Source: Alphaproteobacteria bacterium
GTDB taxonomy: Bacteria; Pseudomonadota; Alphaproteobacteria; Rs-D84
NCBI GenBank assembly: GCA_015062485.1
Contig: SUUO01000004.1
Location: 17,981 to 81,980, forward strand
Direction of reading: 5' to 3'
DNA: 64,000 bases
Shown: piece after piece, positions 3,190 through 25,693 of the stretch
Layout of the letters: the number at the start of each line of letters is the position of its first letter
Position numbering within the stretch: position 1 is the first letter of the stretch
Made by a program: the position numbers and the translations under genes
The notes under the pieces: model-generated
Databases searched by the model: none
What the model saw: only the letters and a program-made list of their open reading frames with translations
Told to the model about the DNA's origin: nothing

Positions 3190-3675
3190 ATGAAGAACAA
3201 GACAAAGATTAAATTTGCAATATTGTTAATGTTGGTGGCGGGAAACGCATATGCCCAACAGCAAAATTCCGATGATGTAAAGCGGGGTGTGCGCGCGCAT
3301 AATTTTGCACGCACATTACTTTATTGGGCCGATGTTGAGGCATACTATGATGTTTCCAAGCGTGAAATTCGGGCCGCTGAAAAAATGTCCCCCGACAGTG
3401 CGATGGCGCGCATTCCGACATTGGTGCGGGATTCAACGTATTTTGCGAACGAACTGCGGTCTGGGGCGGATATTATAAATTCAAAATATACATTAAATGA
3501 ACGCCCGGATAATATTTATACGATATATGAATTACTGTATGTATATGACAAAAAAAATTCTGATAAAAATTCGCCTGATTATATAATGGCCGATAAATTG
3601 CATAAATATGTGGATGTGATAAAAGAACTGAAACTGGCGCGATATGCAATAAGACACAATGATAATCACAAATAA
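3190..3675 (+). CDS. Hypothetical secreted protein
   Basis: Basic N-terminus, hydrophobic core and AYA signal peptidase site; terminator after the stop. Confidence 0.6.
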   Translation: MKNKTKIKFAILLMLVAGNAYAQQQNSDDVKRGVRAHNFARTLLYWADVEAYYDVSKREIRAAEKMSPDSAMARIPTLVRDSTYFANELRSGADIINSKYTLNERPDNIYTIYELLYVYDKKNSDKNSPDYIMADKLHKYVDVIKELKLARYAIRHNDNHK

Positions 3676-13071: not shown

Positions 13072-13338
13072 GTGCGTTCCCCTCCTTCCTTGGGATGCGG
13101 TTGTGGTAAAAATTTAATTCAAACCCTGTATTTACATTGGTATTTACAAAATTCGAATTTTATTTTTTTCCTTTGTTTTGTTTTTTGGCAGAAATCCGGT
13201 TTTATGCGGTTTTCTGGGCTTTTTATTTCTTTTTCCCTTGTCTATACAAATATCTTAGAACAAAAACGAATCGCAGGTCAAGCATAAAATATATTTATTT
13301 TCATTTTATTTTAATTTTTTTATTTTTTGTTACAAAAA

Positions 13339-13401
13339 CCATAAAATACCACACAACAACTATAAAATGTCATTGACAACCATATATGCCCGTGCTACAT
13401 T
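13339..13401 (+). promoter_or_regulatory. mraZ promoter with 10-bp-spaced MraZ-type operator repeats
   Basis: TTGACA(13373)-17 bp-TACATT(13396) with extended -10 TG; CCATA/CCACA/CTATA/CCATA repeats at about 10-bp period. Confidence 0.6.
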
Positions 13402-13464
13402 TCAATTACGAAGACGGAAAGACTAACATTGGGGCGTGCCCCACGAATAACACAAGAAGCAGGA

Positions 13465-13914
13465 ATGTCATTGTTTCTCTCATCTTATGAAAATCGTTTG
13501 GATACCAAGGGGCGCATTTCGGTGCCGGCTTCTTTCCGGGCTTCGGTTGCAAACGAAAAATTTGCGGGGGTTGTACTGTTTCGTTCATTTACAAACAACT
13601 GTATCGAGGGTTTTTCAATGTCCAGAATGGAGGCTATGGCGTCCGCCACCGACCAAATGGGCGTTTTTGACAGCAATCTGGATGATTTATCGGCAATGCT
13701 GTTTGCGGATGCACGCCAACTGGCATTTGACGTGACGGGACGCATTGTTATTCCGTCGGACCTGTTGGCGCACGCCGGAATTACCGATCGCGCCGTGTTT
13801 GTCGGTCGCGGGAACAGTTTTCAAATTTGGAACCCGGATGCATTCCGCAAGGTTCAGGAAAAAGCCCTTAGCAATTTACGCGAGACGCGCCCAAATTTAA
13901 AGATTTCTTTATAA
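13465..13914 (+). CDS. mraZ: Transcriptional regulator MraZ
   Basis: Two DxxGRI.(V/I)P repeats, VFVGRGNSFQIWNP. Confidence 0.93.
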   Translation: MSLFLSSYENRLDTKGRISVPASFRASVANEKFAGVVLFRSFTNNCIEGFSMSRMEAMASATDQMGVFDSNLDDLSAMLFADARQLAFDVTGRIVIPSDLLAHAGITDRAVFVGRGNSFQIWNPDAFRKVQEKALSNLRETRPNLKISL

Positions 13915-13955
13915 AAATTCCCCGTTTGATTAAAGCGCAACTAATGACAACATCA

Positions 13956-13987
13956 ATACTGAACTAAACTTTTATTTATCATAGTAA
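13956..13987 (+). repeat. dif/lox-like 32-bp site, copy A
   Basis: ATACTGAACTAAA-CTTTTA-TTTATCATAGTAA; near-identical to copies at 23201-23232 (-) and 23376-23407 (+). Confidence 0.7.
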
Positions 13988-14007
13988 ATGCTGATATGAA
14001 AAACGTC

Positions 14008-14036
14008 TTGCCTAAAATCGCGCAAAGCGTTATAAT
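14008..14036 (+). promoter_or_regulatory. sigma70 promoter for the Cys-rich gene
   Basis: TTGCCT-17 bp-TATAAT. Confidence 0.65.
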
Positions 14037-14145
14037 ACGTGGCATAGAGACGAAAAACATATGCCGAATCCAATGGGACGTTTTTCCGCGGCATAAATTC
14101 ATAATTAAAAATCCCTGATTTCTGCATATTTTATCCCCCGTTTTT

Positions 14146-15201
14146 GTGCCGAATCTAAACGTCGGTTTGGTTGCGGCGATTGCTATCGCATTAGCGTCAA
14201 TATCGACAACAAACGTTGCATATGCAGCGGCGTGTACATATTCGTCAACATACACATCGGGGACGACTTATACGGGTGCACAATGCCAAACGTTGTCAGC
14301 TGTCTCTTATTTTTCCGCCGGCGGACAGGTAAAGTCTTGCAACACCTGCAGAACTGGTTATACCAGGGTCGCAACGTCAAAAACCCATAGTAGCGGATGT
14401 ACATTTACAATGTACGACTGTGTCGCGAGCGCGAATTACGCCACGGTGGTCGCAGATTGTTCATCGTCCAGCCTTTCAACATTGTATACCAACGCCTGTA
14501 ATGGCGTCTATGGCAACTATCTGGGCAGTTCTTCAACATCTGTGATAAATGAGGCCGGACTTTCTTCGGAATACGACGCGTGTGGGGTATATAATATAAA
14601 ATACGCCTCATCACAACTGACTGCAAAAGTAATTATGTGTTTCAAAAGTCAAATTTTATTTAATGGCACAACCTTTGGCAGCATCCAAGTATCCAAAATA
14701 TTCTCAGAATGCGACCCAGGCTATCACGCCGACGATTACACCACACAATATGTTATCACAGACTGGAGTGGTAATACCGGTGCTACCTTCTCTATAACAA
14801 ATTATGCCCAATGGGACTGTTGCAATAATACAACATCCTGTATGGGGTATGCTGGTGGCAACACAACCAATGCGGGCGATATGATGCTGTATTATTCTGC
14901 AAAAACGTGTTCGACAACAGGGACGTGTGGCGCAACGACCGCGGGCGGATATATCACATGCAATACCGGTTATTATAGTGCCAAGGGGCTGTCGAAATAT
15001 ACATTAACATCAAGTAACAATCCCGCAAATTATGCATCGTATTTAAATTGCACGTCTTGCGCCACAGCAACAAGCAACACCAGCGCAACCAGTGATATCG
15101 GCGCCAGCGCGATAACGCAATGCTATCTGCCGGCGGGTTATGACGACACAGATACCACCGGCGCCTGGAAGTACGACAGCAATTGTAATTATACGAAATA
15201 A
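14146..15201 (+). CDS. Secreted Cys/Thr/Ser-rich protein (start uncertain)
   Basis: Signal-like AIAIALAS..VAYAA; many Cys; C-terminal CYLPAG..DTTGAWKY..NC module. Confidence 0.75.
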   Translation: MPNLNVGLVAAIAIALASISTTNVAYAAACTYSSTYTSGTTYTGAQCQTLSAVSYFSAGGQVKSCNTCRTGYTRVATSKTHSSGCTFTMYDCVASANYATVVADCSSSSLSTLYTNACNGVYGNYLGSSSTSVINEAGLSSEYDACGVYNIKYASSQLTAKVIMCFKSQILFNGTTFGSIQVSKIFSECDPGYHADDYTTQYVITDWSGNTGATFSITNYAQWDCCNNTTSCMGYAGGNTTNAGDMMLYYSAKTCSTTGTCGATTAGGYITCNTGYYSAKGLSKYTLTSSNNPANYASYLNCTSCATATSNTSATSDIGASAITQCYLPAGYDDTDTTGAWKYDSNCNYTK

Positions 15202-15229
15202 AAAATCCCGCCATATGGCGGGATTTTTT
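15200..15229. terminator. Bidirectional intrinsic terminator
   Basis: AAAAAATCCCGCCAT-ATGGCGGGATTTTT. Confidence 0.85.
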
Positions 15230-15515
15230 ATTTCTTGGCTACACGGTTTCTGAATTCCGTGCTGGGGCGGAATGTGACGACGTTACGCGCCGTGATTAGC
15301 GCCGGTTCGCCCGTCTTTGGGTTACGCCCCATACGAGCATTTTTTTCAAGAATCTTGAATGTGCCGAATCCGGCAAACTTGACCTCTTCCCCGTGAAGCA
15401 AGGATTCACTTATTTCATCAAATATCACATCGACCAATTTGTACGCGTCCGCCGATGTTAAACCAAACTTATCGCGCAGTTTATCTGCTAAATCACTTCT
15501 TGTTACTGTTGCCAT
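15228..15515 (-). CDS. ihfA: Integration host factor subunit alpha
   Basis: TVTRSDLA, VKFAGFGTF, RMGRNPKTGE, VTFRPS; directly after fabH as in Alphaproteobacteria. Confidence 0.85.
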   Translation of the reverse strand: MATVTRSDLADKLRDKFGLTSADAYKLVDVIFDEISESLLHGEEVKFAGFGTFKILEKNARMGRNPKTGEPALITARNVVTFRPSTEFRNRVAKK

Positions 15516-15518
15516 TTG

Positions 15519-16457
15519 TTACACCCTTATTAGTGCCGCACCCCAGGTCAGACCACTGCCGAATGCGGGATATAAAATTAACTGTCCGTGCTTTATCATA
15601 CCAGATTCAAATCCATATGCCAGTGCTAAAACACCGGATGCGCCACTGGTATTTGCGTGTCTGTCCACCGTAACCAAAATCTTGTTCAGTGGAAATTCCA
15701 GGCGTGCCGCACAACTTTCAATTATGCGCAGGTTCGCCTGGTGCGGGATAATCCAGTCGACATTGTCGGCCGTAATCCCCGCGTGTTCCATTATGTAACG
15801 CGCCGCGTGTGGCATTGACATAATCGCGCGCCGATATGTTTCGGGACCATTCATTTCAATTTTATGGTCGTTCGTGCCGTGCAACATATCATAACCCGCA
15901 CCGTCGGCCATTACAACCGTGTCAATTATACCAGAATAACTGGATGTGGAACGTTCAAATATCAACGCACCGGCACCATCACCGAATAAAACAGCCGTAC
16001 TGCGATCAGACCAATCAATAAAGCGCGACATTTTTTCCGCACCAACAATCATAATACGCTGGTGCATACCGGCGGCAAAGAACGCACGTGCCGTATGCAA
16101 TGCATAAATATAGCCCGTACACGCACCACGCACATCAAACGCAGGCTGATTCCGGGTTGCGCCCAGGCGCCCCAAAATTTGAACCCCAACGGATGGAAAA
16201 TCCAATTCCGGCGTTGTCGTTGCCACAATCAGCATATCGATATCATCTATGGTCAAGGCGGCATTTTCCAGCGCACGCCGTGCCGCAATAACGGCCATAT
16301 CAACAACCGTTTCATCTTCGCGTGCAATATGACGTTCACGGATACCCGTACGCGTGACAATCCATTCGTCGGTCGTGTCCATAATACGTTCAAAATCGGC
16401 ATTAGTCATAACGCGAGACGGCAAATATGCACCATAGCCAATTAACTTATTTCCCAT
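15519..16457 (-). CDS. fabH: 3-oxoacyl-ACP synthase III
   Basis: DTTDEWIVTRTGIRER, GACTG, LFGDGAGA, PHQAN, HANTS, FGSGLTWG. Confidence 0.93.
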   Translation of the reverse strand: MGNKLIGYGAYLPSRVMTNADFERIMDTTDEWIVTRTGIRERHIAREDETVVDMAVIAARRALENAALTIDDIDMLIVATTTPELDFPSVGVQILGRLGATRNQPAFDVRGACTGYIYALHTARAFFAAGMHQRIMIVGAEKMSRFIDWSDRSTAVLFGDGAGALIFERSTSSYSGIIDTVVMADGAGYDMLHGTNDHKIEMNGPETYRRAIMSMPHAARYIMEHAGITADNVDWIIPHQANLRIIESCAARLEFPLNKILVTVDRHANTSGASGVLALAYGFESGMIKHGQLILYPAFGSGLTWGAALIRV

Positions 16458-16560
16458 AGAGATACGGTCCCCTGCCCTTTGATTTTTTTGCCAACGCATT
16501 ATACAGACACAAAAACCATCTTGCAATATTTTATTGTTGGGAATAAAATGTCAAACAGAT

Positions 16561-16636
16561 GTCCCCATAGTTCAATTGGATAGAACAAATTCCTCCTAAG
16601 AATTAGATACAGGTTCGATTCCTGTTGGGGATGCCA
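16561..16636 (+). tRNA. tRNA-Arg (anticodon CCT)
   Basis: Cloverleaf: GTCCCCA acceptor, GTTC/GAAC D stem, AATTC-CT CCT AA-GAATT anticodon arm, GGTTCGATTCC, encoded CCA. Confidence 0.95.
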
Positions 16637-16638
16637 GA

Positions 16639-17553
16639 TTATTTGATTTTTTGGTTCTGTGTCATATAAAGAACATTGTCATAGCGTTTGCTGCCCATCA
16701 TAGGTTTTACAAAACAATTATCCATCTTATGGCCGGTGGCGTGCGTTTTTGAATTTTGCTTGGCGGCAAATTTTTGCCACGCATCCCACATTTGATCGCG
16801 CGTTGATGCGTTATTGCCCCACATATATTCCAATATGATTGTTCCGCCATCTGGACTAAGATTATTTTGCGATAAATCAGTTAATGTGGCATTATAAAAC
16901 TGATTTAATGCCTGGTAACCGTCTGATATTTCACTGTGCTGAAAATCAAAAATATTAGACAGCATAATAAAATCATATTTTCGTGCAAAGTTTGCAGATA
17001 TCCCCGTAATATCCAGATGTTTAAAACTGATGCCCCGGGGCAGTTTTTTTGCCAGCAGGTTGTATTTTTCTTCGTATGAATAATATGTGTTATCGTAATG
17101 GGCTGTAATATCCAGTTGCCCATTATACGCGAACATTTTGCGACCGGCATTACCAATACTGTAATACAGGTCCATAAACATACGCAACGATGGTGAAAAC
17201 AGTGGCATAATTGGTTTGATTATTTGTATATCAAAGAATCGGTCCCTGGTAAAAAAGAATTCTAAAAAGTCTTCATATGGAATATTTTTAATCATATGAT
17301 TTTTTAATTCTATGATTGGTTTCTGGCGATAATTGATATCAAATGTGTCCACATTTTTTGCGCCGCGTGCATAGCATTCAAATGCGTGGTCGCCAGATGC
17401 GCCAACTGTTAATACGGTTTTGCCAGATAAATCAAATTTATCCAGGTATCCCGCAACATTTTCATTTGAAAACAAGAATACTTCCAGGTCTTTTCTATAA
17501 CCCTGGCTGGTGCAAATCGTATCTTGATTAAAATCAGGCATATTTTGAAACAT
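16639..17553 (-). CDS. DUF3419/BtaA-like SAM-dependent transferase, paralog 2
   Basis: FLFSNEN, VLTVGASGDH, FDINYRQ..ELK, YDFIMLSNI. Confidence 0.7.
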   Translation of the reverse strand: MFQNMPDFNQDTICTSQGYRKDLEVFLFSNENVAGYLDKFDLSGKTVLTVGASGDHAFECYARGAKNVDTFDINYRQKPIIELKNHMIKNIPYEDFLEFFFTRDRFFDIQIIKPIMPLFSPSLRMFMDLYYSIGNAGRKMFAYNGQLDITAHYDNTYYSYEEKYNLLAKKLPRGISFKHLDITGISANFARKYDFIMLSNIFDFQHSEISDGYQALNQFYNATLTDLSQNNLSPDGGTIILEYMWGNNASTRDQMWDAWQKFAAKQNSKTHATGHKMDNCFVKPMMGSKRYDNVLYMTQNQKIK

Positions 17554-18483
17554 TTATCGAACCTTTTGACTAAAAGTCAGCGCTACATCCATCCCCGCAC
17601 CGGGATTCATCACACTGTTATATGTGGTTGGAACGGTAACCATATCTATTTTATGTTCCAGGGGGCAAAAATCATCAATCCGGTATTTCATATATTGCTG
17701 AATCGCGTCAATCATTGTGCGATAATCGGCCGTATTCGCACACCAGGCATAATTAAAACAAATCTGGCCATTGTTGGCGTTCAGATTCCGGTCCGCAATC
17801 GGTGTTATCACATTGTTATAGAATGCCATAATCCGTCCGGCGGTGTCGGGAATTTCTTCGAACATATATTCGGATATATTCGACAATAAAATCGTGTCAT
17901 AAACCGTGTCGCAACGATTGGCAATATTCATCAGATCTGTATGCGTAAAACCAATCTTGTCGGGCATTATATGTGACAGATACGAATATGCCGTAACATC
18001 ATTGATATAGGATATTTTATCAATGTCATAAAATATAGATTGCGCGGTGCGATATCGAAACAAAGAGCGATTTCGCGTCTTGTAATACTTGTTCAAAAAT
18101 ATTTTAAGTGCCGGCGTAAACTTGTGCCATATGGGTTTGATAATGTCACGATTAAAAAAATCTGCCTCGTTAAAAAAGAAATGCATAAATGATAAATACG
18201 GCAGATGCTTTATCATCTTGGACTTTAATTCCAAAACGTGACGTTGCAGATAGTTTACGTCAAATGTATCAACATTTTTGGCGCCACGAACCAAACATTC
18301 AAAGGCGTGATCGCCACTGCCGGTGACGGTCAAAACATTTTTGTCCACAACATCATTGATTTGCGATAAATACCCGGGTATGTTTTCATTTGTAAACAAA
18401 AACACGGGCGCGTGCCAGTTATAGACACTGCGCTGACTTACACCATTTTTTAATGCATATGCGGTTTTGATTACATCAAACAT
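17554..18483 (-). CDS. DUF3419/BtaA-like SAM-dependent transferase, paralog 1
   Basis: FLFTNEN, VLTVTGSGDH, FDVNYLQ..ELK, YDTILLSNI; clear paralog of the neighbouring gene. Confidence 0.7.
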   Translation of the reverse strand: MFDVIKTAYALKNGVSQRSVYNWHAPVFLFTNENIPGYLSQINDVVDKNVLTVTGSGDHAFECLVRGAKNVDTFDVNYLQRHVLELKSKMIKHLPYLSFMHFFFNEADFFNRDIIKPIWHKFTPALKIFLNKYYKTRNRSLFRYRTAQSIFYDIDKISYINDVTAYSYLSHIMPDKIGFTHTDLMNIANRCDTVYDTILLSNISEYMFEEIPDTAGRIMAFYNNVITPIADRNLNANNGQICFNYAWCANTADYRTMIDAIQQYMKYRIDDFCPLEHKIDMVTVPTTYNSVMNPGAGMDVALTFSQKVR

Positions 18484-18601
18484 AATATTTGATTATATAA
18501 CACATTATTTATTTTTGTCAATATAGATTTTTATCTTATTATTTTATGATTTACAGGGCAAAAAAATTTACTATAATTTCACGCACATAAAGGAAAAACG
18601 A

Positions 18602-18928
18602 ATGAAAAACAAAGCCGTAAAAATTGGGATTATCGCATCAATTGTGCCACACATATTCTGTTGTGGCGTGCCAATTGCATTGTCAATTATTGGATTGATT
18701 GCGCCAGAATCTGCGCATTTTCATTTGATTCCACACGAATGGGAACCGTTTTTATTTGTTGTGTCGGGGGCGTTGTTGGCCCTGTCGTGGTATATGGTGG
18801 CGCGCGACTGTCGGTGCAAATGCGAACATTGCGATGGCGATAAATCGCACCGCACCCAAAAGATTATAATGTCCGTAATTACGATATTGTTTGTACTAAG
18901 TGTGATATTACACGTGACAACACATTAA
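18602..18928 (+). CDS. Small 3-TM Cys/His-rich membrane protein (MerT/MerC-like)
   Basis: HIFCCGVP in TM1, CRCKCEHC loop, three hydrophobic segments. Confidence 0.6.
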   Translation: MKNKAVKIGIIASIVPHIFCCGVPIALSIIGLIAPESAHFHLIPHEWEPFLFVVSGALLALSWYMVARDCRCKCEHCDGDKSHRTQKIIMSVITILFVLSVILHVTTH

Positions 18929-18953
18929 AAATCCCCCAAACGGGGGATTTTTT
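18927..18953. terminator. Bidirectional intrinsic terminator
   Basis: AAAATCCCCC-aaac-GGGGGATTTT. Confidence 0.85.
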
Positions 18954-21315
18954 ATTTGGTTTCTTCTACGCAACTGCCGGTTCCATAGGTTTTGTCTGCG
19001 GTCGTTGCTTTGACAAAGACTTTTCCTTCTGGACACGAGCAGGTATTAGTTGCTGGGTAATACTCTTCGTCCGTCAGGCCACTGACAGTACATTTGCCCG
19101 TAGATGCACTACCATTTAACTTTTCGCATCTGTAAGCACCAGCATTATACCAGTATCCACTTGTTCCAAATGCAGAGCAAGCGTCTGCTATGTTTTTACA
19201 TTTTCCACCCTGCATATCAAAATTGTATACATAGACCTGGCCGGCACTGCAAATCTCGAGCCCAGAGATGCTTTCGCCCAGCATATTCGCAATCCACAAC
19301 TTTATGCTGTTGTAATCACCATTTGTCGCATCACCATTTACAGACATACACGTTGTAATTGCTGCACGACAGGAATTAATTGCAACATTGTTATTGGCCT
19401 TGTCACTGTTATATCCATTCTGAGACAGACAGGACGAAACCTCTGCGATACAGTTTTCAGCGTGATCGGCGATAACTTGGTCTTGGGCAACCTTAATCTG
19501 GGTCAATGTACGACGCAGATATTCTTTGACCACGGTGTTTTGTGGGTTATATTCTCCGTTTACATATGTATAATCCTGGCACTTGTTCAAGACAGACGCA
19601 CACATTCCATATGCCTTGCCACCGGTAATATAACCAATCTTGTTTGCCAAGAATTGTGTCATAACAGCCGAGGTTTGCGTAGCGACCTCCTTGCTTAAGG
19701 TTCCGTTTATGTATTCATCAAGAGTACCTGTACCACACCAGGCATTCTGTTCAGTACCGTACTTCCAGGTTGCGTACAACTCGGTTGTTGGACACATTGC
19801 AGGTTCACCAACGCCCGCCTCTGTGACTGTTGCACCAGGGGTAGAACCAATAACGACCTCACCATTAACGATGTATTTACCCGATGGATCCAGACAGTTT
19901 TCATAGTCCGTACCACATACAAAGTCATCCTGCATACAAGAATCCAAAGCATTTACGCAGCCACGCAGGTCGTAAGAATTCTTTTGCTGAGCAACCATTA
20001 AACGTGCCTTTTGCAGAACTGATTGTGCATTACGAACCGTCGCGCGCATTTGATCGTTTGCATCCGTCAATGAGCGTTCGTATGCGACACATTGTTTATC
20101 GATTTCCAAATCATAAGAATTTGTGATAACGGCAATATCTACGCCCTGTGCGGCACAATTGTTTAAAACCGCCGCTTTGCAGCGCGATGCCGCAGTTTTG
20201 TATAGTTCTTCGCCACGCTGGTTTGAAATGCTGGACGTGTTGGTTGTTGTTGTTCCAAACAATCCAGACAGGTCGAAACCAGTACTGCCGATATTAAAGT
20301 CTAACAAGCCAGACAAATCCATACTGATGCCGGATGAAATCTCGGACGAAGAGGCCGTGCCAGATTTAACATCAACAATCATATTTTTAATCTTGTCCAA
20401 ATCGTTTTTGATTTGTGAACTGTCACTGGACCCCTGCATTTGCATTTCCGCCTCTGTCTGGGCAAACAGTGTGTCAATTTCATCGCCGGTCAAACCGATA
20501 TACTGAATTTTTTGCGCGACATCTTGCAGGTTTTCAGTTGCGGCCTTTAACGCCTCTTCGGTTTTGGCATAATTCTTTACATTCTTAGAACAAGAACAAC
20601 GTCCCTGATTATCATCCAAGACATTACAGAAGTTATCCATACATTCGGTATACTGTGCCTTGCAAAAATCGGTGATTTGCGCCAATTCATCCATTGATGT
20701 TGTGACATCTTCGACGGTGACGGGCGTGGCCTCTGTGCTTACCGTGTTGGAAACACGAACAGATGGTACACGCGCACGCACGGATGCCGCACCAACCGTG
20801 CGCGTACCAACGCGACCGGTATACAATGGCGTATTAACCGTATCAGTTTGTGTAATAGATACCGTACCCGCACGGGCGGTTGTCGCCGGTGACGTTGTTT
20901 GCGCCGCACGACGTGTAGAAACATTTTGAGAAGTTGCCGCACGTGATGCCGCACCACGGGTTGCAGTTCCGCGGGTCATAGCACTGCGCGTTTGGGAAAT
21001 ATTGGCCGCCGCACGTGATGCAACCGCACGCGATGGTGCCGTATTTGACGCACGCGTTGTCGCCCCAGATGTCGAAGCAGTCGGCAACGAACGTGTTGCA
21101 CGTGACGAAGAACGATTCGTATTACGTGCCGGTACACTTGGTGCCGCAACATTTTTTTGTTCGTCTTCGACAACAAATTCGTCATCAACAACGACATCAC
21201 CGTCATACATTTCGGCATCAGAATATTCGATTACGTCGTCATAGTAAACAGGCGCAACCTCAGCAAATGCGGGCATTACCAGCAATCCACTTAATACTGC
21301 AACAAATCTTTTCAT
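18952..21315 (-). CDS. Large secreted Cys-rich/coiled-coil protein, paralog A
   Basis: Signal peptide, Arg/Ala/Thr/Ser-rich linker, CMDNFC..NQGRCSCS core shared with 59150-61369. Confidence 0.85.
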   Translation of the reverse strand: MKRFVAVLSGLLVMPAFAEVAPVYYDDVIEYSDAEMYDGDVVVDDEFVVEDEQKNVAAPSVPARNTNRSSSRATRSLPTASTSGATTRASNTAPSRAVASRAAANISQTRSAMTRGTATRGAASRAATSQNVSTRRAAQTTSPATTARAGTVSITQTDTVNTPLYTGRVGTRTVGAASVRARVPSVRVSNTVSTEATPVTVEDVTTSMDELAQITDFCKAQYTECMDNFCNVLDDNQGRCSCSKNVKNYAKTEEALKAATENLQDVAQKIQYIGLTGDEIDTLFAQTEAEMQMQGSSDSSQIKNDLDKIKNMIVDVKSGTASSSEISSGISMDLSGLLDFNIGSTGFDLSGLFGTTTTNTSSISNQRGEELYKTAASRCKAAVLNNCAAQGVDIAVITNSYDLEIDKQCVAYERSLTDANDQMRATVRNAQSVLQKARLMVAQQKNSYDLRGCVNALDSCMQDDFVCGTDYENCLDPSGKYIVNGEVVIGSTPGATVTEAGVGEPAMCPTTELYATWKYGTEQNAWCGTGTLDEYINGTLSKEVATQTSAVMTQFLANKIGYITGGKAYGMCASVLNKCQDYTYVNGEYNPQNTVVKEYLRRTLTQIKVAQDQVIADHAENCIAEVSSCLSQNGYNSDKANNNVAINSCRAAITTCMSVNGDATNGDYNSIKLWIANMLGESISGLEICSAGQVYVYNFDMQGGKCKNIADACSAFGTSGYWYNAGAYRCEKLNGSASTGKCTVSGLTDEEYYPATNTCSCPEGKVFVKATTADKTYGTGSCVEETK

Positions 21316-21508
21316 ATTTTTTCTTCCCTTCTCTGATATTGCATTTTATCACATAGTGCAAATTCAGACAAGCAAAAAAATTGACAGAAAACTTTAAAAT
21401 TATTTGATATAACTGATTTAAATCCTAATTCATTAAAAAACATAATGAATTTAACTTGTAAAATGCTTTTTATTTATACTATACTATATAATCACGGGGG
21501 TAAAAAAG

Positions 21509-23098
21509 TTGAACATATTAAAAAAAGTTTCGATGTTTATATTATGCCTGCCGCTGATTGGGTGCACAACTGTGCCAACAACAACCAGTGACAAGCGCCT
21601 GGAAGGCTATTCGGCCAAGGTTACACCGCACGACTTTCAATATGACCCATATGAAACACCAATTGCAAAATGCTATGCAACCGAATTGGCGACGGGTGAC
21701 GACGTATCAGGCGCGACGTTAATCGAAGACGGACTGTCCGCATTCGTTATCCGTTCCGCGTTTGCACGTATGGCAACCAAGACGATTGATTTGCAGACTT
21801 ATATTTATAGTAATGATTTTTCATCCAAGGTTTTAATTGGCGAACTTAAAAACGCCGCAGACCGTGGGGTCAAGGTACGAATTTTACTGGATGATTATGG
21901 AACAAAATCTGACATCGTGGATGTAATGTTGCTGAACCAGCATCCAAATATAGAGGTCAAGGTTTTCAATACTGTTAAAAATCGCACAAAATTGTTTTAT
22001 TACCCACAGTTTATGATGGACTTTAATCGCCTGAATTCGCGTATGCATAATAAATTGTTCATCGTGGACAATGTTGCGTACATCACCGGCGGTCGCAATG
22101 TCGGCAGTAATTATTTCTATCCGGAAACGGCATCGAATTTTTCCGATACTGACGTTTTGTTTATTGGTGAAATGACACGTCACGCGACAAAAAGTTTCGA
22201 CGAATACTGGAATCACCACCTGTCTATTCCGGCGTCGGCATTTCCACGTGCACAAACAAAGCGTGGATTGAAAAAACTGGAACGGGAATTCGCGAAAATT
22301 GCCGAAAAAAGCGCAGAAGAAGTTAATCGATACAATAATATTATCGCAATGGCCCAACGCGAATATCAGACCAAGAAATTTGATTTCAGTTGGGGGCGCG
22401 GAAAATTCTTGGCCGATCCACCACAAAAAGTCGAAATGACAATGGATGAAAAAGAGGCATATCGTGGTGACATCGTTCGTGCGTTACAACACCTGTGGGA
22501 TAAAACGGATAAATCTGTTTATATGTCGGCGGCGTACTTTGTCCCGGGCCAAGGGGGCTTGGAACATATGTTGCACGAAGAAAAATCGGGCGTACATATG
22601 ACGATTGTCACGAATTCGTTGGCATCGACAAATGCACCAACAGTGTATGCAAAATGGGAAAAGTATCGCAAACAACTGATTGAATCTGGGGCGGACGTGT
22701 ACGAATTTATGGTGTCTGCGGAAAATTTACGCGGGAAAGAACACGACCGCGAAAGAAAACAATCCAGTTTTTCGGTTCTGCACAGCAAGACAATGGTGTT
22801 TGACGATGATATTTCCTGGATAGGCAGTTTCAACCTGGATCCACGCAGTGCATATTACAACACGGAAAATGTGGCCATTTTCGAAAGCCGTGATTTTGCA
22901 GACAAACTGCGCGCGATGATTTTAAAAGACACCCAGACGTCGTGGCGCGTCACATTGGATGAAGACGGAGATCCCGTCTGGACCGGCAGTCGCCCCGGCG
23001 ATAAAAAGCCCCAGGTTCACAAGCGTGCACCTGACACATCCATTTTCCGGCGTGTTTGGAAATCGATATGCAGCCTGGTCCCGGAAAAGTTTGTATAA
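21509..23098 (+). CDS. Phospholipase D family lipoprotein (ClsC/YmdC-like)
   Basis: Lipobox LIGC, two HKD motifs (RMHNKLFIVD, LHSKTMVFD), GSFNLDPRS. Confidence 0.88.
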   Translation: MNILKKVSMFILCLPLIGCTTVPTTTSDKRLEGYSAKVTPHDFQYDPYETPIAKCYATELATGDDVSGATLIEDGLSAFVIRSAFARMATKTIDLQTYIYSNDFSSKVLIGELKNAADRGVKVRILLDDYGTKSDIVDVMLLNQHPNIEVKVFNTVKNRTKLFYYPQFMMDFNRLNSRMHNKLFIVDNVAYITGGRNVGSNYFYPETASNFSDTDVLFIGEMTRHATKSFDEYWNHHLSIPASAFPRAQTKRGLKKLEREFAKIAEKSAEEVNRYNNIIAMAQREYQTKKFDFSWGRGKFLADPPQKVEMTMDEKEAYRGDIVRALQHLWDKTDKSVYMSAAYFVPGQGGLEHMLHEEKSGVHMTIVTNSLASTNAPTVYAKWEKYRKQLIESGADVYEFMVSAENLRGKEHDRERKQSSFSVLHSKTMVFDDDISWIGSFNLDPRSAYYNTENVAIFESRDFADKLRAMILKDTQTSWRVTLDEDGDPVWTGSRPGDKKPQVHKRAPDTSIFRRVWKSICSLVPEKFV

Positions 23099-23124
23099 AA
23101 AATCCCCCGTTCGGGGGATTTTTT
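23097..23124. terminator. Intrinsic terminator
   Basis: AAAAAATCCCCCG-tt-CGGGGGATTTTT. Confidence 0.85.
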
Positions 23125-23200
23125 AAAGTTCAAAGTGCAAAGTTCAAAGTGCAAACAATGAATCCAACTTCGCAAAATACTTCGTTGGACAAGTACATAA

Positions 23201-23232
23201 ATACTTAGATAAATAAAAGTTTAGCGCAGTAA
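23201..23232 (-). repeat. dif/lox-like 32-bp site, copy B (inverted)
   Basis: Minus strand reads TTACTGCGCTAAA-CTTTTA-TTTATCTAAGTAT; 21-bp perfect inverted repeat with 23384-23404. Confidence 0.7.
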
Positions 23233-23260
23233 TCAGTTTACAAAAACGTTTCACGTTTTT

Positions 23261-23348
23261 GTCATTCCGGTGCTTGACACCGGAATCCAGGTGAAAGCAA
23301 ATAAAGAGGAAATATGACCTGGGTCCCGTGGTCAAGCCACGGGATGAC
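23261..23348. repeat. RPE4-like / REP palindromic element
   Basis: GTCATTCCGGTGCTTGACACCGGAATCCAGG ... CCTGGGTCCCGTGGTCAAGCCACGGGATGAC; minus strand translates to SSRGLTTG...LDSGVKHRND, like the Rickettsia RPE4 peptide. Confidence 0.75.
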
Positions 23349-23375
23349 AAAATTTTTACAAAATTTTATTTGTGC

Positions 23376-23407
23376 TTACTTAACTAAACTTTTATTTATC
23401 TAAGCAA
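23376..23407 (+). repeat. dif/lox-like 32-bp site, copy C
   Basis: TTACTTAACTAAA-CTTTTA-TTTATCTAAGCAA. Confidence 0.7.
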
Positions 23408-23436
23408 TTGCGTAAGGGAAAAGATTTGGTTATAAT
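23408..23436 (+). promoter_or_regulatory. sigma70 promoter
   Basis: TTGCGT-17 bp-TATAAT, abutting site C. Confidence 0.65.
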
Positions 23437-23463
23437 TGTTGTGTTATGACAAATTGTCATAAT

Positions 23464-23654
23464 GGGGTGTCAAGACCCGTGCATAGGTATCGGAAAGCCA
23501 ACCTGTACAATATACAGGGCGAGTGTATGTTCCGATAAAAACGCTCCTGGCCAATGGTCAGGAGGGCTGTGAATATATTGAATAAGCACACAATTCCTAT
23601 GATTGTCTTGAACCTCCTGACCACTTGAAGTTTTTCAGTGGTTTTTGTTTTTTT
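23464..23654 (+). ncRNA. c4-antisense-like structured leader RNA with terminator
   Basis: TGGTCAGGAGG/CCTCCTGACCA 11-bp stem; internal CCTATG and GTCTTGA are complementary to upstream CATAGG and TCAAGAC; CCACTTGAA/TTCAGTGG hairpin plus T-tract. Confidence 0.6.
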
Positions 23655-23685
23655 CGCGAATAAAACAAAAGAAAGGAGATTGAAA

Positions 23686-24111
23686 ATGAAAAAACTTTTA
23701 TTTTTAACCGCGACGTGCGCGATTTTGACCGCACCCGCAACAGCGGTCCAACAATGCGTGGCATTGGATGCCAGTGTTAACGGGACAAGTTATGTCAATC
23801 CGGGTTCGAAAGCTGAATGGTCCGTAACATTTCCCAATGTGACAGTACGCGGAATCGGCGTATGTGGTAGCAAAAGCGGTTCATATAAAGACCTGTCGGA
23901 TAGCTTCACTACATATGATAGCGCAGCAGGATTTGCAAATAATCGCTATTGTTGGTGTAAGATGATAAGTCCAGCCGTGTCGTCTTGGGTGTTAGCCTTT
24001 GCTGCCGATGACGCGGATTATTGTGCGCCCGGCTGTAATGGCGACTGTGCGAGCGCCGTCAGCAACTCTTCCACCTTCCGGTCCGCGATGTTTGGTTCAA
24101 TATCAAACTAA
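23686..24111 (+). CDS. Secreted Cys-rich protein with a putatively hypervariable C-terminus
   Basis: SD AAGGAG, signal peptide MKKLLFL..ATA, YCWCK..P..S.WV and C-X3-C-X3-C motifs. Confidence 0.8.
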   Translation: MKKLLFLTATCAILTAPATAVQQCVALDASVNGTSYVNPGSKAEWSVTFPNVTVRGIGVCGSKSGSYKDLSDSFTTYDSAAGFANNRYCWCKMISPAVSSWVLAFAADDADYCAPGCNGDCASAVSNSSTFRSAMFGSISN

Positions 24112-24121
24112 GGTGGCGCGA

Positions 24122-24601
24122 ATGAAACGATTAATATTTTTAATGTCTTTTGTGCCGATTGTCGCGCACGCCGCCACTGAAAAGGCCAATGGTGAGAGGT
24201 GCATAGCGAACAGAGATTGCGCATCGCTGGTATGTTCACAAAAAAGTGGCGAATTATTGAGGTATTGTGCAGCGCCCGCCGTCCTTGGAGAATCCTGTAG
24301 CACAAAATTAGGAGATGCAGTTTATTATCTTGATACACAAAAACTTTGTGCCAGTGGTTTGATATGTCAAAACGGTCTTTGTGTTACAATAGATACCTGT
24401 CCGTCGGGATATATCGTGATTGACAGGCCATATATCACCCTTGCAACCAGTTGCACCAGCGGCACAATCGCCGTTGGCACGGCGGAATCGTGTTTGGTGG
24501 AAAGTCCCGCGGGGGATTGCATAATGTATGCGCCGGTCGGGATGTCCTTTACGGATGAATCCGGTACATACGAATTTACAGATGCGTGTGCGATGGAGTA
24601 A
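24122..24601 (+). CDS. Secreted Cys-rich protein (Dickkopf/EB-like Cys spacing)
   Basis: Signal peptide ..VAHA; GERC..NRDCASLVC; C-terminal CIMYAPVG..FTDESGTYEF..AC module. Confidence 0.78.
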   Translation: MKRLIFLMSFVPIVAHAATEKANGERCIANRDCASLVCSQKSGELLRYCAAPAVLGESCSTKLGDAVYYLDTQKLCASGLICQNGLCVTIDTCPSGYIVIDRPYITLATSCTSGTIAVGTAESCLVESPAGDCIMYAPVGMSFTDESGTYEFTDACAME

Positions 24602-24627
24602 AAAATCCCGGCATCGCCGGGATTTTT
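24600..24627. terminator. Bidirectional intrinsic terminator
   Basis: AAAAAATCCCGGC-atc-GCCGGGATTTTT. Confidence 0.85.
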
Positions 24628-25693
24628 ATTGTTTTTCTTGCTGTAACTGACTGCGTATCGATTCAACAGATTTTGCACGTTCTGCAATCAGACCATTTAA
24701 ATTTGCGTGAATCAAATCTGATGCGTACTTTAACGAATTTGCAAATGCCAATGCATCACTGTTGCCGTGGGTTTTTACCGCAAACCCCTTTAGCCCCAGG
24801 AACACCGCACCCGCATATGAACGTGGGTCAATTTTATGCTTTAACCGTTTAAATACGTGAACCAAGAAGAACGCACCAATCATCGCCAAAATTGATTTCT
24901 TGAAGTTTTCAACGATAACACGCTTGATCAATTTTGCGGTACCTTCGACCGTTTTTAATACGATATTACCGGTAAAGCCGTCGGTGACAACCACCTGAAC
25001 GCGGCCGGCACTGATATCATTGGCCTCTACAAAGCCCAGATATTCATACGGTAATTCATCTTTGTGTTCGGTCAGAACGTGATTCAAATGCACCAGGGTT
25101 TCGTTACCCTTGGTTTCTTCGGATCCGATATTCAGTACACCTAATTTTGGTTTTGGCATTTTTCCGATAACCTCGGCATAAACACTGCCCAGGACGGCAA
25201 AGTCAAACAAAATAGATTCATCACACTGAACATTTGCCCCCAGGTCCAAAACGACCACACGATCATCGCCGGCACCAGATGGCAACATCGTTGTAATCGC
25301 CGGACGTGCAATACCATCAACCGTCTTTAATGCCAATTTTGACAGCGACATCAAAACACCGGTGTTACCCGCACTGACGACGGCGGCGGCGTTGCCCTCG
25401 CGGACGTCTTTGATTGCCATATACATAGACGTATCCTGGGCGTGACGAACGATATCCATAATTTTATCCGTCCCCTTGATAACGCCGGGGGCGTGTACAA
25501 CCTCTACATTACGGCCGACGCGCGGGTATTTAGTCAACATACGGCGCAGACGTTTTTCGTCACCAAACAGGCGGAAATGAACTTTGTCTTCGCCATTTTG
25601 ATATAAGAACTGGTTAATGCCCCCCAGGACGGCCGATGGGCCCTTGTCCCCACTCATAGCATCAACGGCAATAATTTTCTTTTGTTCTGACAT
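24626..25693 (-). CDS. plsX: Phosphate acyltransferase PlsX
   Basis: IAVDAMSGD, VSAGNTG, LDLGAN, LNIGSEETKG, VVTDGFTGN, VKTHG. Confidence 0.95.
   Translation of the reverse strand: MSEQKKIIAVDAMSGDKGPSAVLGGINQFLYQNGEDKVHFRLFGDEKRLRRMLTKYPRVGRNVEVVHAPGVIKGTDKIMDIVRHAQDTSMYMAIKDVREGNAAAVVSAGNTGVLMSLSKLALKTVDGIARPAITTMLPSGAGDDRVVVLDLGANVQCDESILFDFAVLGSVYAEVIGKMPKPKLGVLNIGSEETKGNETLVHLNHVLTEHKDELPYEYLGFVEANDISAGRVQVVVTDGFTGNIVLKTVEGTAKLIKRVIVENFKKSILAMIGAFFLVHVFKRLKHKIDPRSYAGAVFLGLKGFAVKTHGNSDALAFANSLKYASDLIHANLNGLIAERAKSVESIRSQLQQEKQ

Follow-up and report, generated by a model that had tools for sequence, protein, structure and literature searches.

Three similar short sites in a 64,000-nucleotide stretch of DNA (hereafter the window) from an uncultured gut alphaproteobacterium lie next to genes for secreted Cys-rich proteins. 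The question is whether they are the crossover points of a site-specific recombination system that shuffles these genes as cassettes, as an earlier note on this DNA proposed, or have some other role. The sequences and coordinates given there turned out to be exact on re-reading for all three sites:

Site A: 13956-13987, + strand, solo copy of the junction motif, with its 13-mer at 13966-13978
Site B: 23201-23232, - strand, motif copy oriented to the terminator side and not backed by a promoter
Site C: 23376-23407, + strand, motif copy immediately 5' of an L1 promoter

A 24-base pattern derived from A, B and C, with up to three mismatches allowed, matches the window at these three sites only, and none of 100 dinucleotide-preserving shuffles of the same window (0/100) has any match. 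Proximity to promoters, also claimed for A and C, is real: A ends 20 bp 5' of its promoter and C abuts its own. B and C, described as an inverted pair around an insert of ~145 bp, are indeed inverted, with 143 bp between them.

Site A is part of a cassette that is wholly absent from the matching place in the close relative G074 and has ATAAAAA at either end:

13911..15197, + strand: A cassette, consisting of a short lead-in, site A, a promoter, an L2-type leader and a Cys-rich gene
14008..14036, + strand: sigma70-type promoter of the A cassette, TTGCCT-N17-TATAAT, 20 bp 3' of site A
14146..15201, + strand: Cys-rich open reading frame of 351 aa with a signal-peptide-like start; its start codon is tentative

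B and C belong to another unit, in place of which G074 has a single terminator region of ~44 bp:

23110..24617, unstranded: B/C cassette unit, absent as a whole from G074
23100..23127, unstranded: terminator hairpin 3' of a phospholipase-D-like gene, left edge of the unit
23128..23200, - strand: terminator-side low-complexity module of GCACTTTGAACTTT repeats with a small hairpin, which forms a separate repeat family
23233..23375, unstranded: five-hairpin foldback core, whose 21-bp terminal stem is B paired with C
23408..23436, + strand: L1-class sigma70-type promoter, TTGCGT-N17-TATAAT, abutting site C
23443..23685, + strand: L1 leader (start inferred from the -10 box), with a 5' hairpin GTTATGACAAATTGTCATAAT followed by GGGGTGT, and a 3' hairpin and T-run before the gene
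23686..24111, + strand: small secreted Cys-rich gene, first in the cassette
24122..24601, + strand: second secreted Cys-rich gene, start inferred at MKRLIFL
24603..24632, unstranded: terminator hairpin common to the convergent plsX, right edge of the unit

In other words, one foldback stands at the 5' edge of a two-gene cassette and has B and C as its terminal inverted repeats, and the 5' edge of another cassette carries A as a solo copy. Folded as single-stranded DNA, the foldback has a z-score of -10.6, with B and C forming the 21-bp terminal stem around five inner hairpins, and its stems display compensatory changes across 11 copies. Segments between paired sites in this genome (G000, 0.94 Mb) are non-coding. 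Small palindromic inserts occur in nested form as well. The foldback core aligns, on both strands, with the whole of the Rfam model RF02625 (WsnRNA46, Wolbachia sRNA 46) at 37 and 32 bits, with an E-value of 2.7e-6 for the 301 bases searched; in bits, the match stays below the gathering score of 65.3. It shares with WsnRNA46 a GTCAT...hairpin...ATGAC frame, whereas the model treats as one long hairpin what here are five. The match is sub-threshold, and none of the evidence marks the element as an RNA gene.

The three sites have many relatives in the genome. The 13-mer AAACTTTTATTTA, with at most one mismatch, gives 57 raw hits genome-wide and 48 after a simple filter, and the exact 15-mer occurs 33 times in G000 compared to 0 for a reversed control pattern, so that the scan for further sites proposed in the earlier note has uncovered a genuine family. 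In total, some 45 copies of one motif are accompanied by several structured-repeat families in this genome. The fixed part of the motif is 14 bp long, TAAA-CTTTTA-TTTA. In the logo of the 48 sites the conserved block is asymmetric, extending from ~2 bases 5' to 11 bases 3' of the 13-mer, while the left arm is weakly conserved, with a consensus reverse-complementary to the right arm. This gives an 11-6-11 dyad architecture at the consensus level. The outer arms vary, and the 6-bp centre does not: each of its positions is invariant in 47-48 of 48 sites, instead of varying freely genome-wide as the earlier note had contemplated. Consequently, the description of the sites as symmetric arms around an invariant asymmetric core is accurate for the core, whereas the symmetry of the outer arms exists only as a consensus. 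Same-strand runs of sites are found on contig C1, and orientation does not strictly alternate along contigs. Among 61 genomes sampled from the genus, the motif is present in 14, in multiple copies (four or more) in 9, and absent from 47. Its distribution is patchy among equally distant species, and it is exact in species whose PlsX proteins are only ~80-83% identical.

Around the motif, promoter/leader, terminator-side low-complexity and five-hairpin foldback modules are placed head-to-head, with at least five inner and at least five outer module families in G000. Inner modules such as foldback ends and CACTAA repeats each adjoin L1, L2 and three terminator-side families, and foldbacks are found in both orientations relative to the promoter/terminator flanks. 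Arm variants track the adjacent module, left and right arms assorting independently. The genes downstream of the motif mostly encode secreted Cys-rich proteins; a gene for a 72-aa XRE-type HTH protein is also found behind the same promoter and leader. The motif in the sister species G006 bounds several further repeat families, and six copies in alternating orientation are packed there within 1.5 kb. In a sister species the motif also joins an element with a DUF559-nuclease gene, and it is absent from the DUF559 elements of other species.

To see how these arrangements change, we compared G000 with G074, whose PlsX protein is 99% identical. Alignable parts are 88-99% identical, with 84% of G000 aligned and ~15% not. 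Because genomes so close by PlsX already differ at about half of the motif loci, the intergenic mosaics are what changes fastest in the genome. Some of the differences could, however, stem from assembly choices, since the genomes of the relatives are species representatives assembled from metagenomes. Sixteen of 37 motif loci (25 of 48 sites) are in or within 150 bp of DNA that does not align to G074, compared to ~18% expected by length, which supports the claim that the sites mark the 5' edge of secreted Cys-rich gene cassettes varying between close relatives. Eight motif-bearing cassettes, both of those in the window included, are absent from the matching G074 places. The motif is internal to the missing unit in all eight, the empty places have no motif, and the junctions, where cleanly resolved, fall in or beside terminator hairpins and not in CTTTTA. 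The sites therefore are not the cassette boundaries they were taken for. Smaller modules are another matter. In one case a solo site in one genome is replaced by a pair, in another a hairpin-type module is replaced by a foldback pair, and in a third a foldback pair is missing with half a site left. One foldback copy occupies different loci in the two genomes, one promoter cassette has been relocated with its core flipped relative to the promoter, and one G074 promoter has lost the core and retained the promoter sequence. Breakpoints of such small swaps coincide with an arm or the core in three loci, plus the one core flip; no inversion or crossover was seen directly in the contigs used, which break at repeats. 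Breakpoints at the sites are found for smaller module swaps and not for whole cassettes. What survives of the original reading is a real multi-copy family at the 5' edge of secreted Cys-rich cassettes; what does not is the role of the sites as boundaries or crossover points of whole cassettes.

Based on these observations, we consider A, B and C to be copies of a lineage-restricted intergenic repeat, distinct from dif, that would join interchangeable non-coding modules and act as a handle for their exchange, cassettes moving as units; we would give this reading about an even chance of being correct. The modules found on one side of the motif combine freely with those on the other, and module swaps between close relatives break at the motif. 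The 14-bp fixed part would then be the joint, and the outer arms would belong to the neighbouring sequence. As proposed for the neisserial dRS3/NIME arrays, the motif may be a hot spot or handle for module exchange, the candidate agent being a DNA-binding or recombination protein, or else short-homology recombination. Its promoter-side arm would at the same time provide the A/T-rich region upstream of the cassette promoter, and whole cassettes would be gained and lost as units, with the motif inside, through recombination in or beside terminator hairpins. Since small module swaps and one core flip break at the motif, recombination at it is possible. However, the fixed spacing in the L1 class would also fit a transcription-factor site or UP-like element, and the exactness of the 14 bp across species exceeds what a passive joint needs.

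In one further reading, which we consider unlikely, the motif would be recognised by a recombinase, either the host XerC/XerD or a protein of another kind, with which these tiny-genome gut bacteria swap promoter-proximal modules and so rewire or relocate the promoters of their variable secreted-protein cassettes. Closest to the original proposal is a full site-specific system, in which a tyrosine recombinase (XerC/XerD or other) would bind the arms and exchange strands in CTTTTA, so that modules invert or swap like dif modules or a shufflon. The dyad with its invariant asymmetric centre, one arm well conserved and the other poorly, suits such a system, as do 11 inverted pairs in G000, the alternating arrays of G006, the foldbacks in both orientations and the independent assortment of arms. 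The core flip between G000 and G074 at the same promoter points the same way, and 3 of 18 motif-bearing L1 promoters likewise have the core in flipped orientation. The genome has XerC-like and XerD-like genes, but these are near-universal in bacteria. In Acinetobacter, modules at pdif sites are documented to have been inverted, excised and replaced, although there, going by the available part of the report, arms are conserved and spacers variable, the reverse of what we see (PMC13141974). Nonetheless, we regard this full system as quite unlikely, as the site is unused in cassette gain and loss, its orientation does not strictly alternate, and no read-level inversion was seen in contigs that break at repeats. 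No Phage_integrase or Resolvase match occurs beside any motif pair or array or on the window's contig, in agreement with the statement that the window has no recombinase, and none of the recombinases tested tracks the motif; a small serine invertase is present in 51 of 61 genomes irrespective of it. As the chromosomal dif itself, which shares two ~11-bp arms around a 6-bp centre, the motif is ruled out by its multi-copy state (33 exact and ~48 near copies instead of one per replicon), the lack of a GC-skew switch and the lack of a correlated recombinase gene. The skew does not change sign on the window's contig (C5), so the suggestion that this zone lies near a replication terminus is not borne out. 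The sole, more canonical dif-like candidate, found by a pattern search on contig C1 and not at a skew switch, has different arms.

The motif could be a transcription element, either an operator for a dimeric regulator or a UP-like A/T-rich element, serving a regulon of leader-bearing cassettes with the 72-aa HTH protein as candidate regulator, and we see in this a minor possibility. The -35 box of L1 promoters starts 9 nt 3' of the 13-mer in 17 of 18 cases, and the conserved block, judged by eye, covers ~-59 to -34 from the inferred start, about the region occupied by E. coli UP elements. One site between two divergent promoters has the same arm-to-(-35) geometry on both sides, and a dimeric protein would fit the dyad symmetry. 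At a cut-off (E <=1e-20) chosen after the data had been seen, strong homologues of the HTH protein are found in 11 of 61 genomes, 10 of which are among the 14 with the motif, and the motif is upstream of 10 of 22 HTH genes examined. On the other hand, the association weakens at E <=1e-5, where 24 of 61 genomes have the family, HTH homologues are missing from two genomes that carry 10 and 6 copies of the motif, and co-occurrence among related, non-independent genomes may only mirror shared membership of the cassette system. Furthermore, L2 spacing is uneven (16, 16, 18 and 29 nt), about 10 of ~28 real L1 promoters keep the promoter-side arm alone without the core, and the G074 promoter persists after core loss. 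No promoter lies behind at least 13 of 48 sites in G000, which face terminators or other repeats, and the same holds for most of the 43 G006 copies examined. The motif might instead be passive, a remnant terminal inverted repeat from a MITE family whose transposase is lost or elsewhere, with solo copies as decay products and the promoter link as hitch-hiking. Foldback architecture, nested palindromic inserts and patchy spread are consistent with this, as is the presence or absence of the foldback alone at conserved loci, and so is the finding of one copy at different loci in the two close genomes; solo sites could derive from pairs that lost one core and the spacer by deletion between near-identical arms. 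Yet there is no clear target-site duplication (none visible at B/C and one imperfect 8-bp direct repeat, at contig C1:53686), and the motif stays exact despite the PlsX divergence noted above. In addition, all copies share only the 14-bp centre while their arms follow outside modules, which is not how terminal repeats behave. Neither a matching transposase nor any protein acting on the motif was found among the families searched, which were Phage_integrase, Resolvase and DUF559. The remnant explanation is, to us, very unlikely.

Among known systems, the shufflon (Rci/sfx) consists of coding segments in an array, next to which its own recombinase is encoded, unlike the non-coding segments here, which have no recombinase match beside them. 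REP/BIME and the palindromic elements of Wolbachia or Rickettsia are other comparators for the foldback. The closest analogue is the neisserial dRS3/NIME system, although the motif is not a member of it. There, dRS3 repeats with internal dyad symmetry flank many families of 50-200-bp non-coding RS repeats, the arrays differ between close strains and adjoin variable surface-protein genes, and a site-specific recombinase acting on dRS3 has been proposed, not shown (PMC1797815). Our motif is likewise a short dyad repeat flanking many short non-coding repeat families, in arrays that are dynamic between close relatives and lie beside variable secreted-protein genes. Going by the portion of that paper available, however, its sequence is unrelated to the dRS3 pattern, which has conserved 6-bp ends and a variable centre, whereas ours is A/T-rich with an invariant asymmetric 6-bp centre (PMC1797815). 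Also unlike that system as described there, one arm here lies directly against a promoter, the host is an uncultured gut bacterium with a genome of 0.94 Mb, and the motif is not a known integration site for any phage. In the dif modules of Acinetobacter plasmids, pdif sites are inversely oriented around modules, gene-less ones included (PMC13141974, PMC6449649, PMC5790767), and modules have been found inverted, replaced and in new contexts (PMC13141974). The motif resembles them in having two arms and a 6-bp centre and, in its 11 inverted pairs, in the inverse orientation around discrete modules. It differs, as far as the accessible text goes, in that pdif arms match the host dif (PMC13141974), and in that our sites are chromosomal and cassette loss leaves no site. 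Correia repeat enclosed elements are MITE-like foldbacks (PMC1797815). Such elements, as described there, are similarly structured, ~150-200 bp long with terminal inverted repeats, often just 5' of genes, and present or absent at otherwise conserved loci; in our case no target duplication or transposase has been identified, and the terminal repeat also occurs solo and bounds unrelated inserts.

If the motif were a mere promoter element or a dead repeat, it would still be a useful marker of the cassette system for annotation. Reduced genomes of ~0.9 Mb are expected to be repeat-poor. This one has nevertheless kept its ~45 motif copies and structured repeats exactly 5' of its most variable secreted-protein genes. 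Should the recombinase-site reading be true, dif modules would have a non-coding equivalent on the chromosome, and the NIME/dRS3 recombination hypothesis, long-standing yet unproven, could be tested on it. If it is a recombination handle, it would be a tractable analogue of the neisserial system and would explain surface-repertoire variation in an uncultured, partner-dependent gut lineage.

The earlier note had described three copies of one motif in the window, and their positions, strands and sequences were found exactly as it had quoted them:

A, 13956-13987, + strand: motif copy ending 20 bp 5' of a promoter, TTGCCT-N17-TATAAT
B, 23201-23232, - strand: motif copy inverted relative to C, with 143 bp in between
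C, 23376-23407, + strand: motif copy directly adjoining a promoter, TTGCGT-N17-TATAAT

The promoters and the inverted B/C pair likewise agree with that description, the promoters being predicted from sequence, as are all promoters, gene starts and leaders discussed here. A 24-base pattern derived from the three copies matches the window, at up to three mismatches, at these three places only, and none of 100 shuffles has any match. The motif belongs to a family spread over the host genome, G000 (941,769 bp in 17 contigs, rated 96.7% complete; the window is C5:17981-81980), whose DNA is also contained in animal-gut sequencing runs. Allowing one mismatch, the 13-mer AAACTTTTATTTA has 57 raw matches in this genome, 48 of which remained after a simple filter, and an exact 15-mer is present in 33 copies, compared with none for a reversed control pattern. 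In the logo of the 48 sites the centre is invariant and the conserved block comprises the 13-mer with the 2 bases preceding it and the 11 following it; only TAAA-CTTTTA-TTTA is common to all copies. Since the consensus of the left arm reads as the reverse complement of the right one, the proposed dyad around an asymmetric 6-bp centre is real at the consensus level, but the symmetry does not extend to conservation, one arm being strong and the other, left one weak. Strict alternation of site orientation was not seen in G000. In the accessible text of PMC12306168, which deals with Enterousia, we found no mention of repeats or palindromes; the size of G000 and its presence in gut runs agree with what that text says of the group.

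The motif joins various sequence modules. On the strong-arm side, 18 sites face a promoter and leader of a class that we call L1 (site C is one of them), with the -35 box beginning 9 nt past the 13-mer in 17 of these. Four sites face the second class, L2, that of site A, at spacings of 16, 16, 18 and 29 nt. The downstream genes are mostly secreted Cys-rich ones, with which the motif, promoter and leader form a cassette. At least 13 sites, including B, face a low-complexity module and a terminator without a promoter, and the remaining ones are mixed. The genes that end at motif-facing terminators are housekeeping ones, such as those for EF-Ts, DnaK, an RlmE-like protein and, before B, a phospholipase-D-like protein. 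The weak-arm side is occupied by foldback ends (see below), by CACTAA-type or different low-complexity repeats, or by an L1 promoter pointing away. Inner and outer module families assort freely, and every arm variant goes with its neighbouring module. The L1 leader pattern has 38 matches in G000, with the core forward in 15, inverted in 3 and absent from 20; about 10 of the latter are real promoters with the promoter-side arm only, the others being false matches in coding DNA. As to the leaders themselves, the one after C (23443-23685) carries an attenuator-like terminal hairpin and T-run right before the ribosome-binding site, and leaders of its class stand before the genes of about 28 promoters in G000. 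The L2 leader after A contains a perfect 10-nt inverted repeat, GAAAAACGTC / GACGTTTTTC (13998-14007, 14077-14086), that encloses 69 nt, and a short upstream ORF in the A cassette echoes the first codons of the gene (14061 and 14146).

There are 11 inverted pairs in G000, spanning 105-235 bp from 13-mer to 13-mer, and 8 of them, B/C included, contain the same structured core, the foldback. Folded as single-stranded DNA, the B-C unit forms a 21-bp terminal stem, in which B pairs with C, around five hairpins, with an energy of -52.1 kcal/mol versus -20.0 for shuffles (z = -10.6). Across 11 foldback copies (8 from G000 and 3 from G074, another genome of the genus), several stem pairs change on both sides, so the hairpin structure is being kept. 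With respect to the promoter and terminator flanks, the foldback is found in either orientation. In Rfam, only two tRNAs reached the gathering score; WsnRNA46 gave a full-model match to the foldback core on both strands, with 37 and 32 bits where 65.3 would be needed for gathering. Logan contigs from three DNA runs and one RNA run end at repeats (13281-14149 and 23124-23671); their joints have the sequence of other genomic copies, and identical pieces are found in all three DNA runs.

G074, whose PlsX is 99% identical to that of G000, allowed a whole-genome comparison: 84.3% of G000 aligns, and alignable flanks are 88-99% identical. None of the 11 inverted pairs of G000 is unchanged in G074. 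Where G000 has a solo site, G074 has a pair whose terminator-side module is different, and a hairpin-type module of G000 is replaced there by a foldback pair. The foldback pair at C1:53686 is missing in G074, where the promoter-side arm is joined to the other flank; this deletion is marked by an imperfect 8-bp direct repeat, and the foldback copy is found at a different locus. In the case of contig C7 the two genomes combine the same promoter and leader with opposite orientations of the core, and the neighbours differ. These smaller module changes do break at the motif. At 13 shared loci the motif differs at 23 of 338 positions versus 9-17% in the flanks, a contrast that is too weak and driven by replaced flanks. 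The sites are enriched by variable DNA: 25 of 48 sites and 16 of 37 loci fall in, or within 150 bp of, the 87 non-aligning segments, compared with about 18% expected by length (binomial tail for loci, 3e-4). The motif is found in only 16 of the 87 segments; the bulk of the variable DNA therefore has nothing to do with it. Within a block of the window that is otherwise 92-97% identical between G000 and G074, divergence is highest at 18957-19843, in the N-terminal part of a 787-aa secreted Cys-rich protein.

Whole cassettes behave differently from these smaller changes. Eight motif-bearing cassettes of G000, including that of A (13911-15197) and the B/C unit (23110-24617), are missing at the matching places in G074; one of them, on C7, is not lost, as it is located elsewhere in that genome. 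In all eight cases the missing unit contains the motif, of which there is no copy at the empty place, and this speaks against the earlier idea that cassettes are captured and lost by crossover in CTTTTA. The clean junctions are instead in or beside terminator hairpins of the AAAAATCCC...GGGATTTTT kind, two of which are present per clean place in G000 (filled) and one in G074 (empty). The A cassette has the flanking repeat ATAAAAA, and its lead-in resembles half a terminator. Absence of the B/C cassette from G074 is probably a loss, because the more distant G069 (PlsX 97% identical to that of G000, DNA here 76-87%) keeps a B/C-like pair, the L1 promoter and the cassette beside plsX. Being near-palindromes with a variable 4-6-nt centre, the terminator hairpins might be considered a candidate recombination site at least as good as the motif. 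Hairpins 23100-23127, 24603-24632 and also 15202-15230 belong to this one family. At the empty B/C place of G074 (L036, ~3517-3562), a small palindromic insert sits in the loop of the single terminator; in two other copies, a related small palindrome is found in the loop of one foldback hairpin.

The surrounding region has further peculiarities. plsX and fabH-ihfA are usually neighbours; here (15519-16526, 24626-25693) they are separated by 8 kb with a tRNA gene, two paralogous methyltransferase-like genes and the genes for the 787-aa Cys-rich protein and the phospholipase-D-like protein; ihfA itself occupies 15228-15515. From fabH to the tRNA gene there are about 2 kb in G074 (L036, 9865-11895) versus about 10 bp in G000 (16549-16558). 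FabH was found in 13 of 31 genomes, and among the 8 genomes with both loci located, their relative orientation and distance vary.

Searches for the Phage_integrase and Resolvase families gave five recombinase-type genes in G000: a XerD-like gene, a XerC-like gene, a 393-aa integrase located at the end of a contig, a large serine recombinase and a small serine invertase-like gene. None is on the window's contig, in keeping with the earlier note, which had seen no recombinase in the window. The small serine invertase was rejected as the motif's partner, because 51 of 61 genomes have it irrespective of whether they carry the motif. A dif pattern yielded one candidate in G000, C1:41835 (-), outside the window (GGCGCATAA TTTATA TTATGTATAGT). 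It is conserved in G074 and represents the best candidate for the real dif. A GC-skew switch is found neither there nor in the window's contig. Neither the identity of the sites as dif nor the placement of this zone near the terminus is supported.

Among the 61 genomes of the genus, of which all relatives are metagenome-assembled species representatives, the exact 15-mer is most abundant in G006 (45 copies, next to 33 in G000), followed by G069 (21), G074 (15), G060 (14), G016 and G044 (10 each), G065 (6) and G050 (4); five further genomes have 1-2 copies and 47 have none. The motif may be present or absent in genomes at similar PlsX distance (80-84% identity). It is not tied to the L1 leader, which was rejected as an obligatory partner: a 14-mer of the leader's 5' end is absent from the motif-rich G006 and G060, and this end was not found in five motif-free genomes searched either. 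In G006, a sister species, the motif joins repeats quite unlike those of G000, with six alternating copies within 1.5 kb, and also bounds elements of ~450-670 bp with a DUF559 nuclease gene (Pfam E-value 4.5e-32), of which 4 copies are intact and near-identical and at least 10 truncated by internal deletion. Each of these elements (L022:745-1128 and L016-L027) is nested in long inverted repeats ending in the motif. The nuclease is cargo rather than the motif's enzyme, since the gene is absent from G000 and G074 and since DUF559 elements in four other species end in GC-rich sequences of their own and lack the motif.

We give about an even chance to the proposal that the motif is a joint of a mosaic intergenic repeat system, at which repeat modules would be prone to exchange. 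A mainly transcriptional role is rather unlikely. It would fit the fixed spacing to the -35 box in the L1 class and one site shared by a divergent promoter pair, with identical geometry towards each promoter, but many sites have no promoter behind them, the L2 spacing varies, and among L1 promoters there are the ten or so real ones lacking the core and the three with the core inverted. The conserved block lies at the position of UP elements in E. coli promoters, a resemblance judged by eye in a register predicted from the -10 box; comparisons with IHF, hix and UP consensus sequences were likewise made by eye and are not counted as evidence. A lead for the transcriptional reading is a 72-aa XRE-type HTH gene of G000 (C7:44872-45087, -), located behind a motif, promoter and leader of the same kind. 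Strong homologues (E <= 1e-20, a cut-off chosen after seeing the table) are found in 11 of 61 genomes, all but one of them motif-bearing, related genomes not being independent; at E <= 1e-5 the family is found in 24 of 61. The motif is upstream of 10 of the 22 HTH genes read, and homologues are lacking from two genomes whose motif counts are 10 and 6. This co-occurrence may merely reflect common membership of one cassette system. The HTH genes (L099-L118), up to 5-6 copies per genome, are always preceded by a structured leader of the kind that the Cys-rich cassettes have.

It is unlikely that the motif belongs to a dedicated site-specific recombination system; for cassette capture and loss, the eight comparisons with G074 speak against a crossover in CTTTTA. 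The dif modules of Acinetobacter, for which the accessible text of PMC13141974 describes inversion, excision and replacement at inversely oriented sites, are similar on paper, but their conserved arms and variable spacers are the reverse of the invariant centre and variable outer arms seen here, and next to the inverted pairs of G000 there are runs of same-strand sites on C1. That the motif, for all its inverted pairs, is the end of a dead MITE seems quite improbable.

A mosaic intergenic repeat system is the best-supported picture, and among described systems its closest analogue is neisserial dRS3/RS (NIME). According to the accessible part of PMC1797815, a short dyad repeat flanks more than 100 short-repeat families in that system, with arrays that differ between strains and adjoin variable surface-protein genes; the recombinase suggested to act there is a proposal that has yet to be demonstrated.
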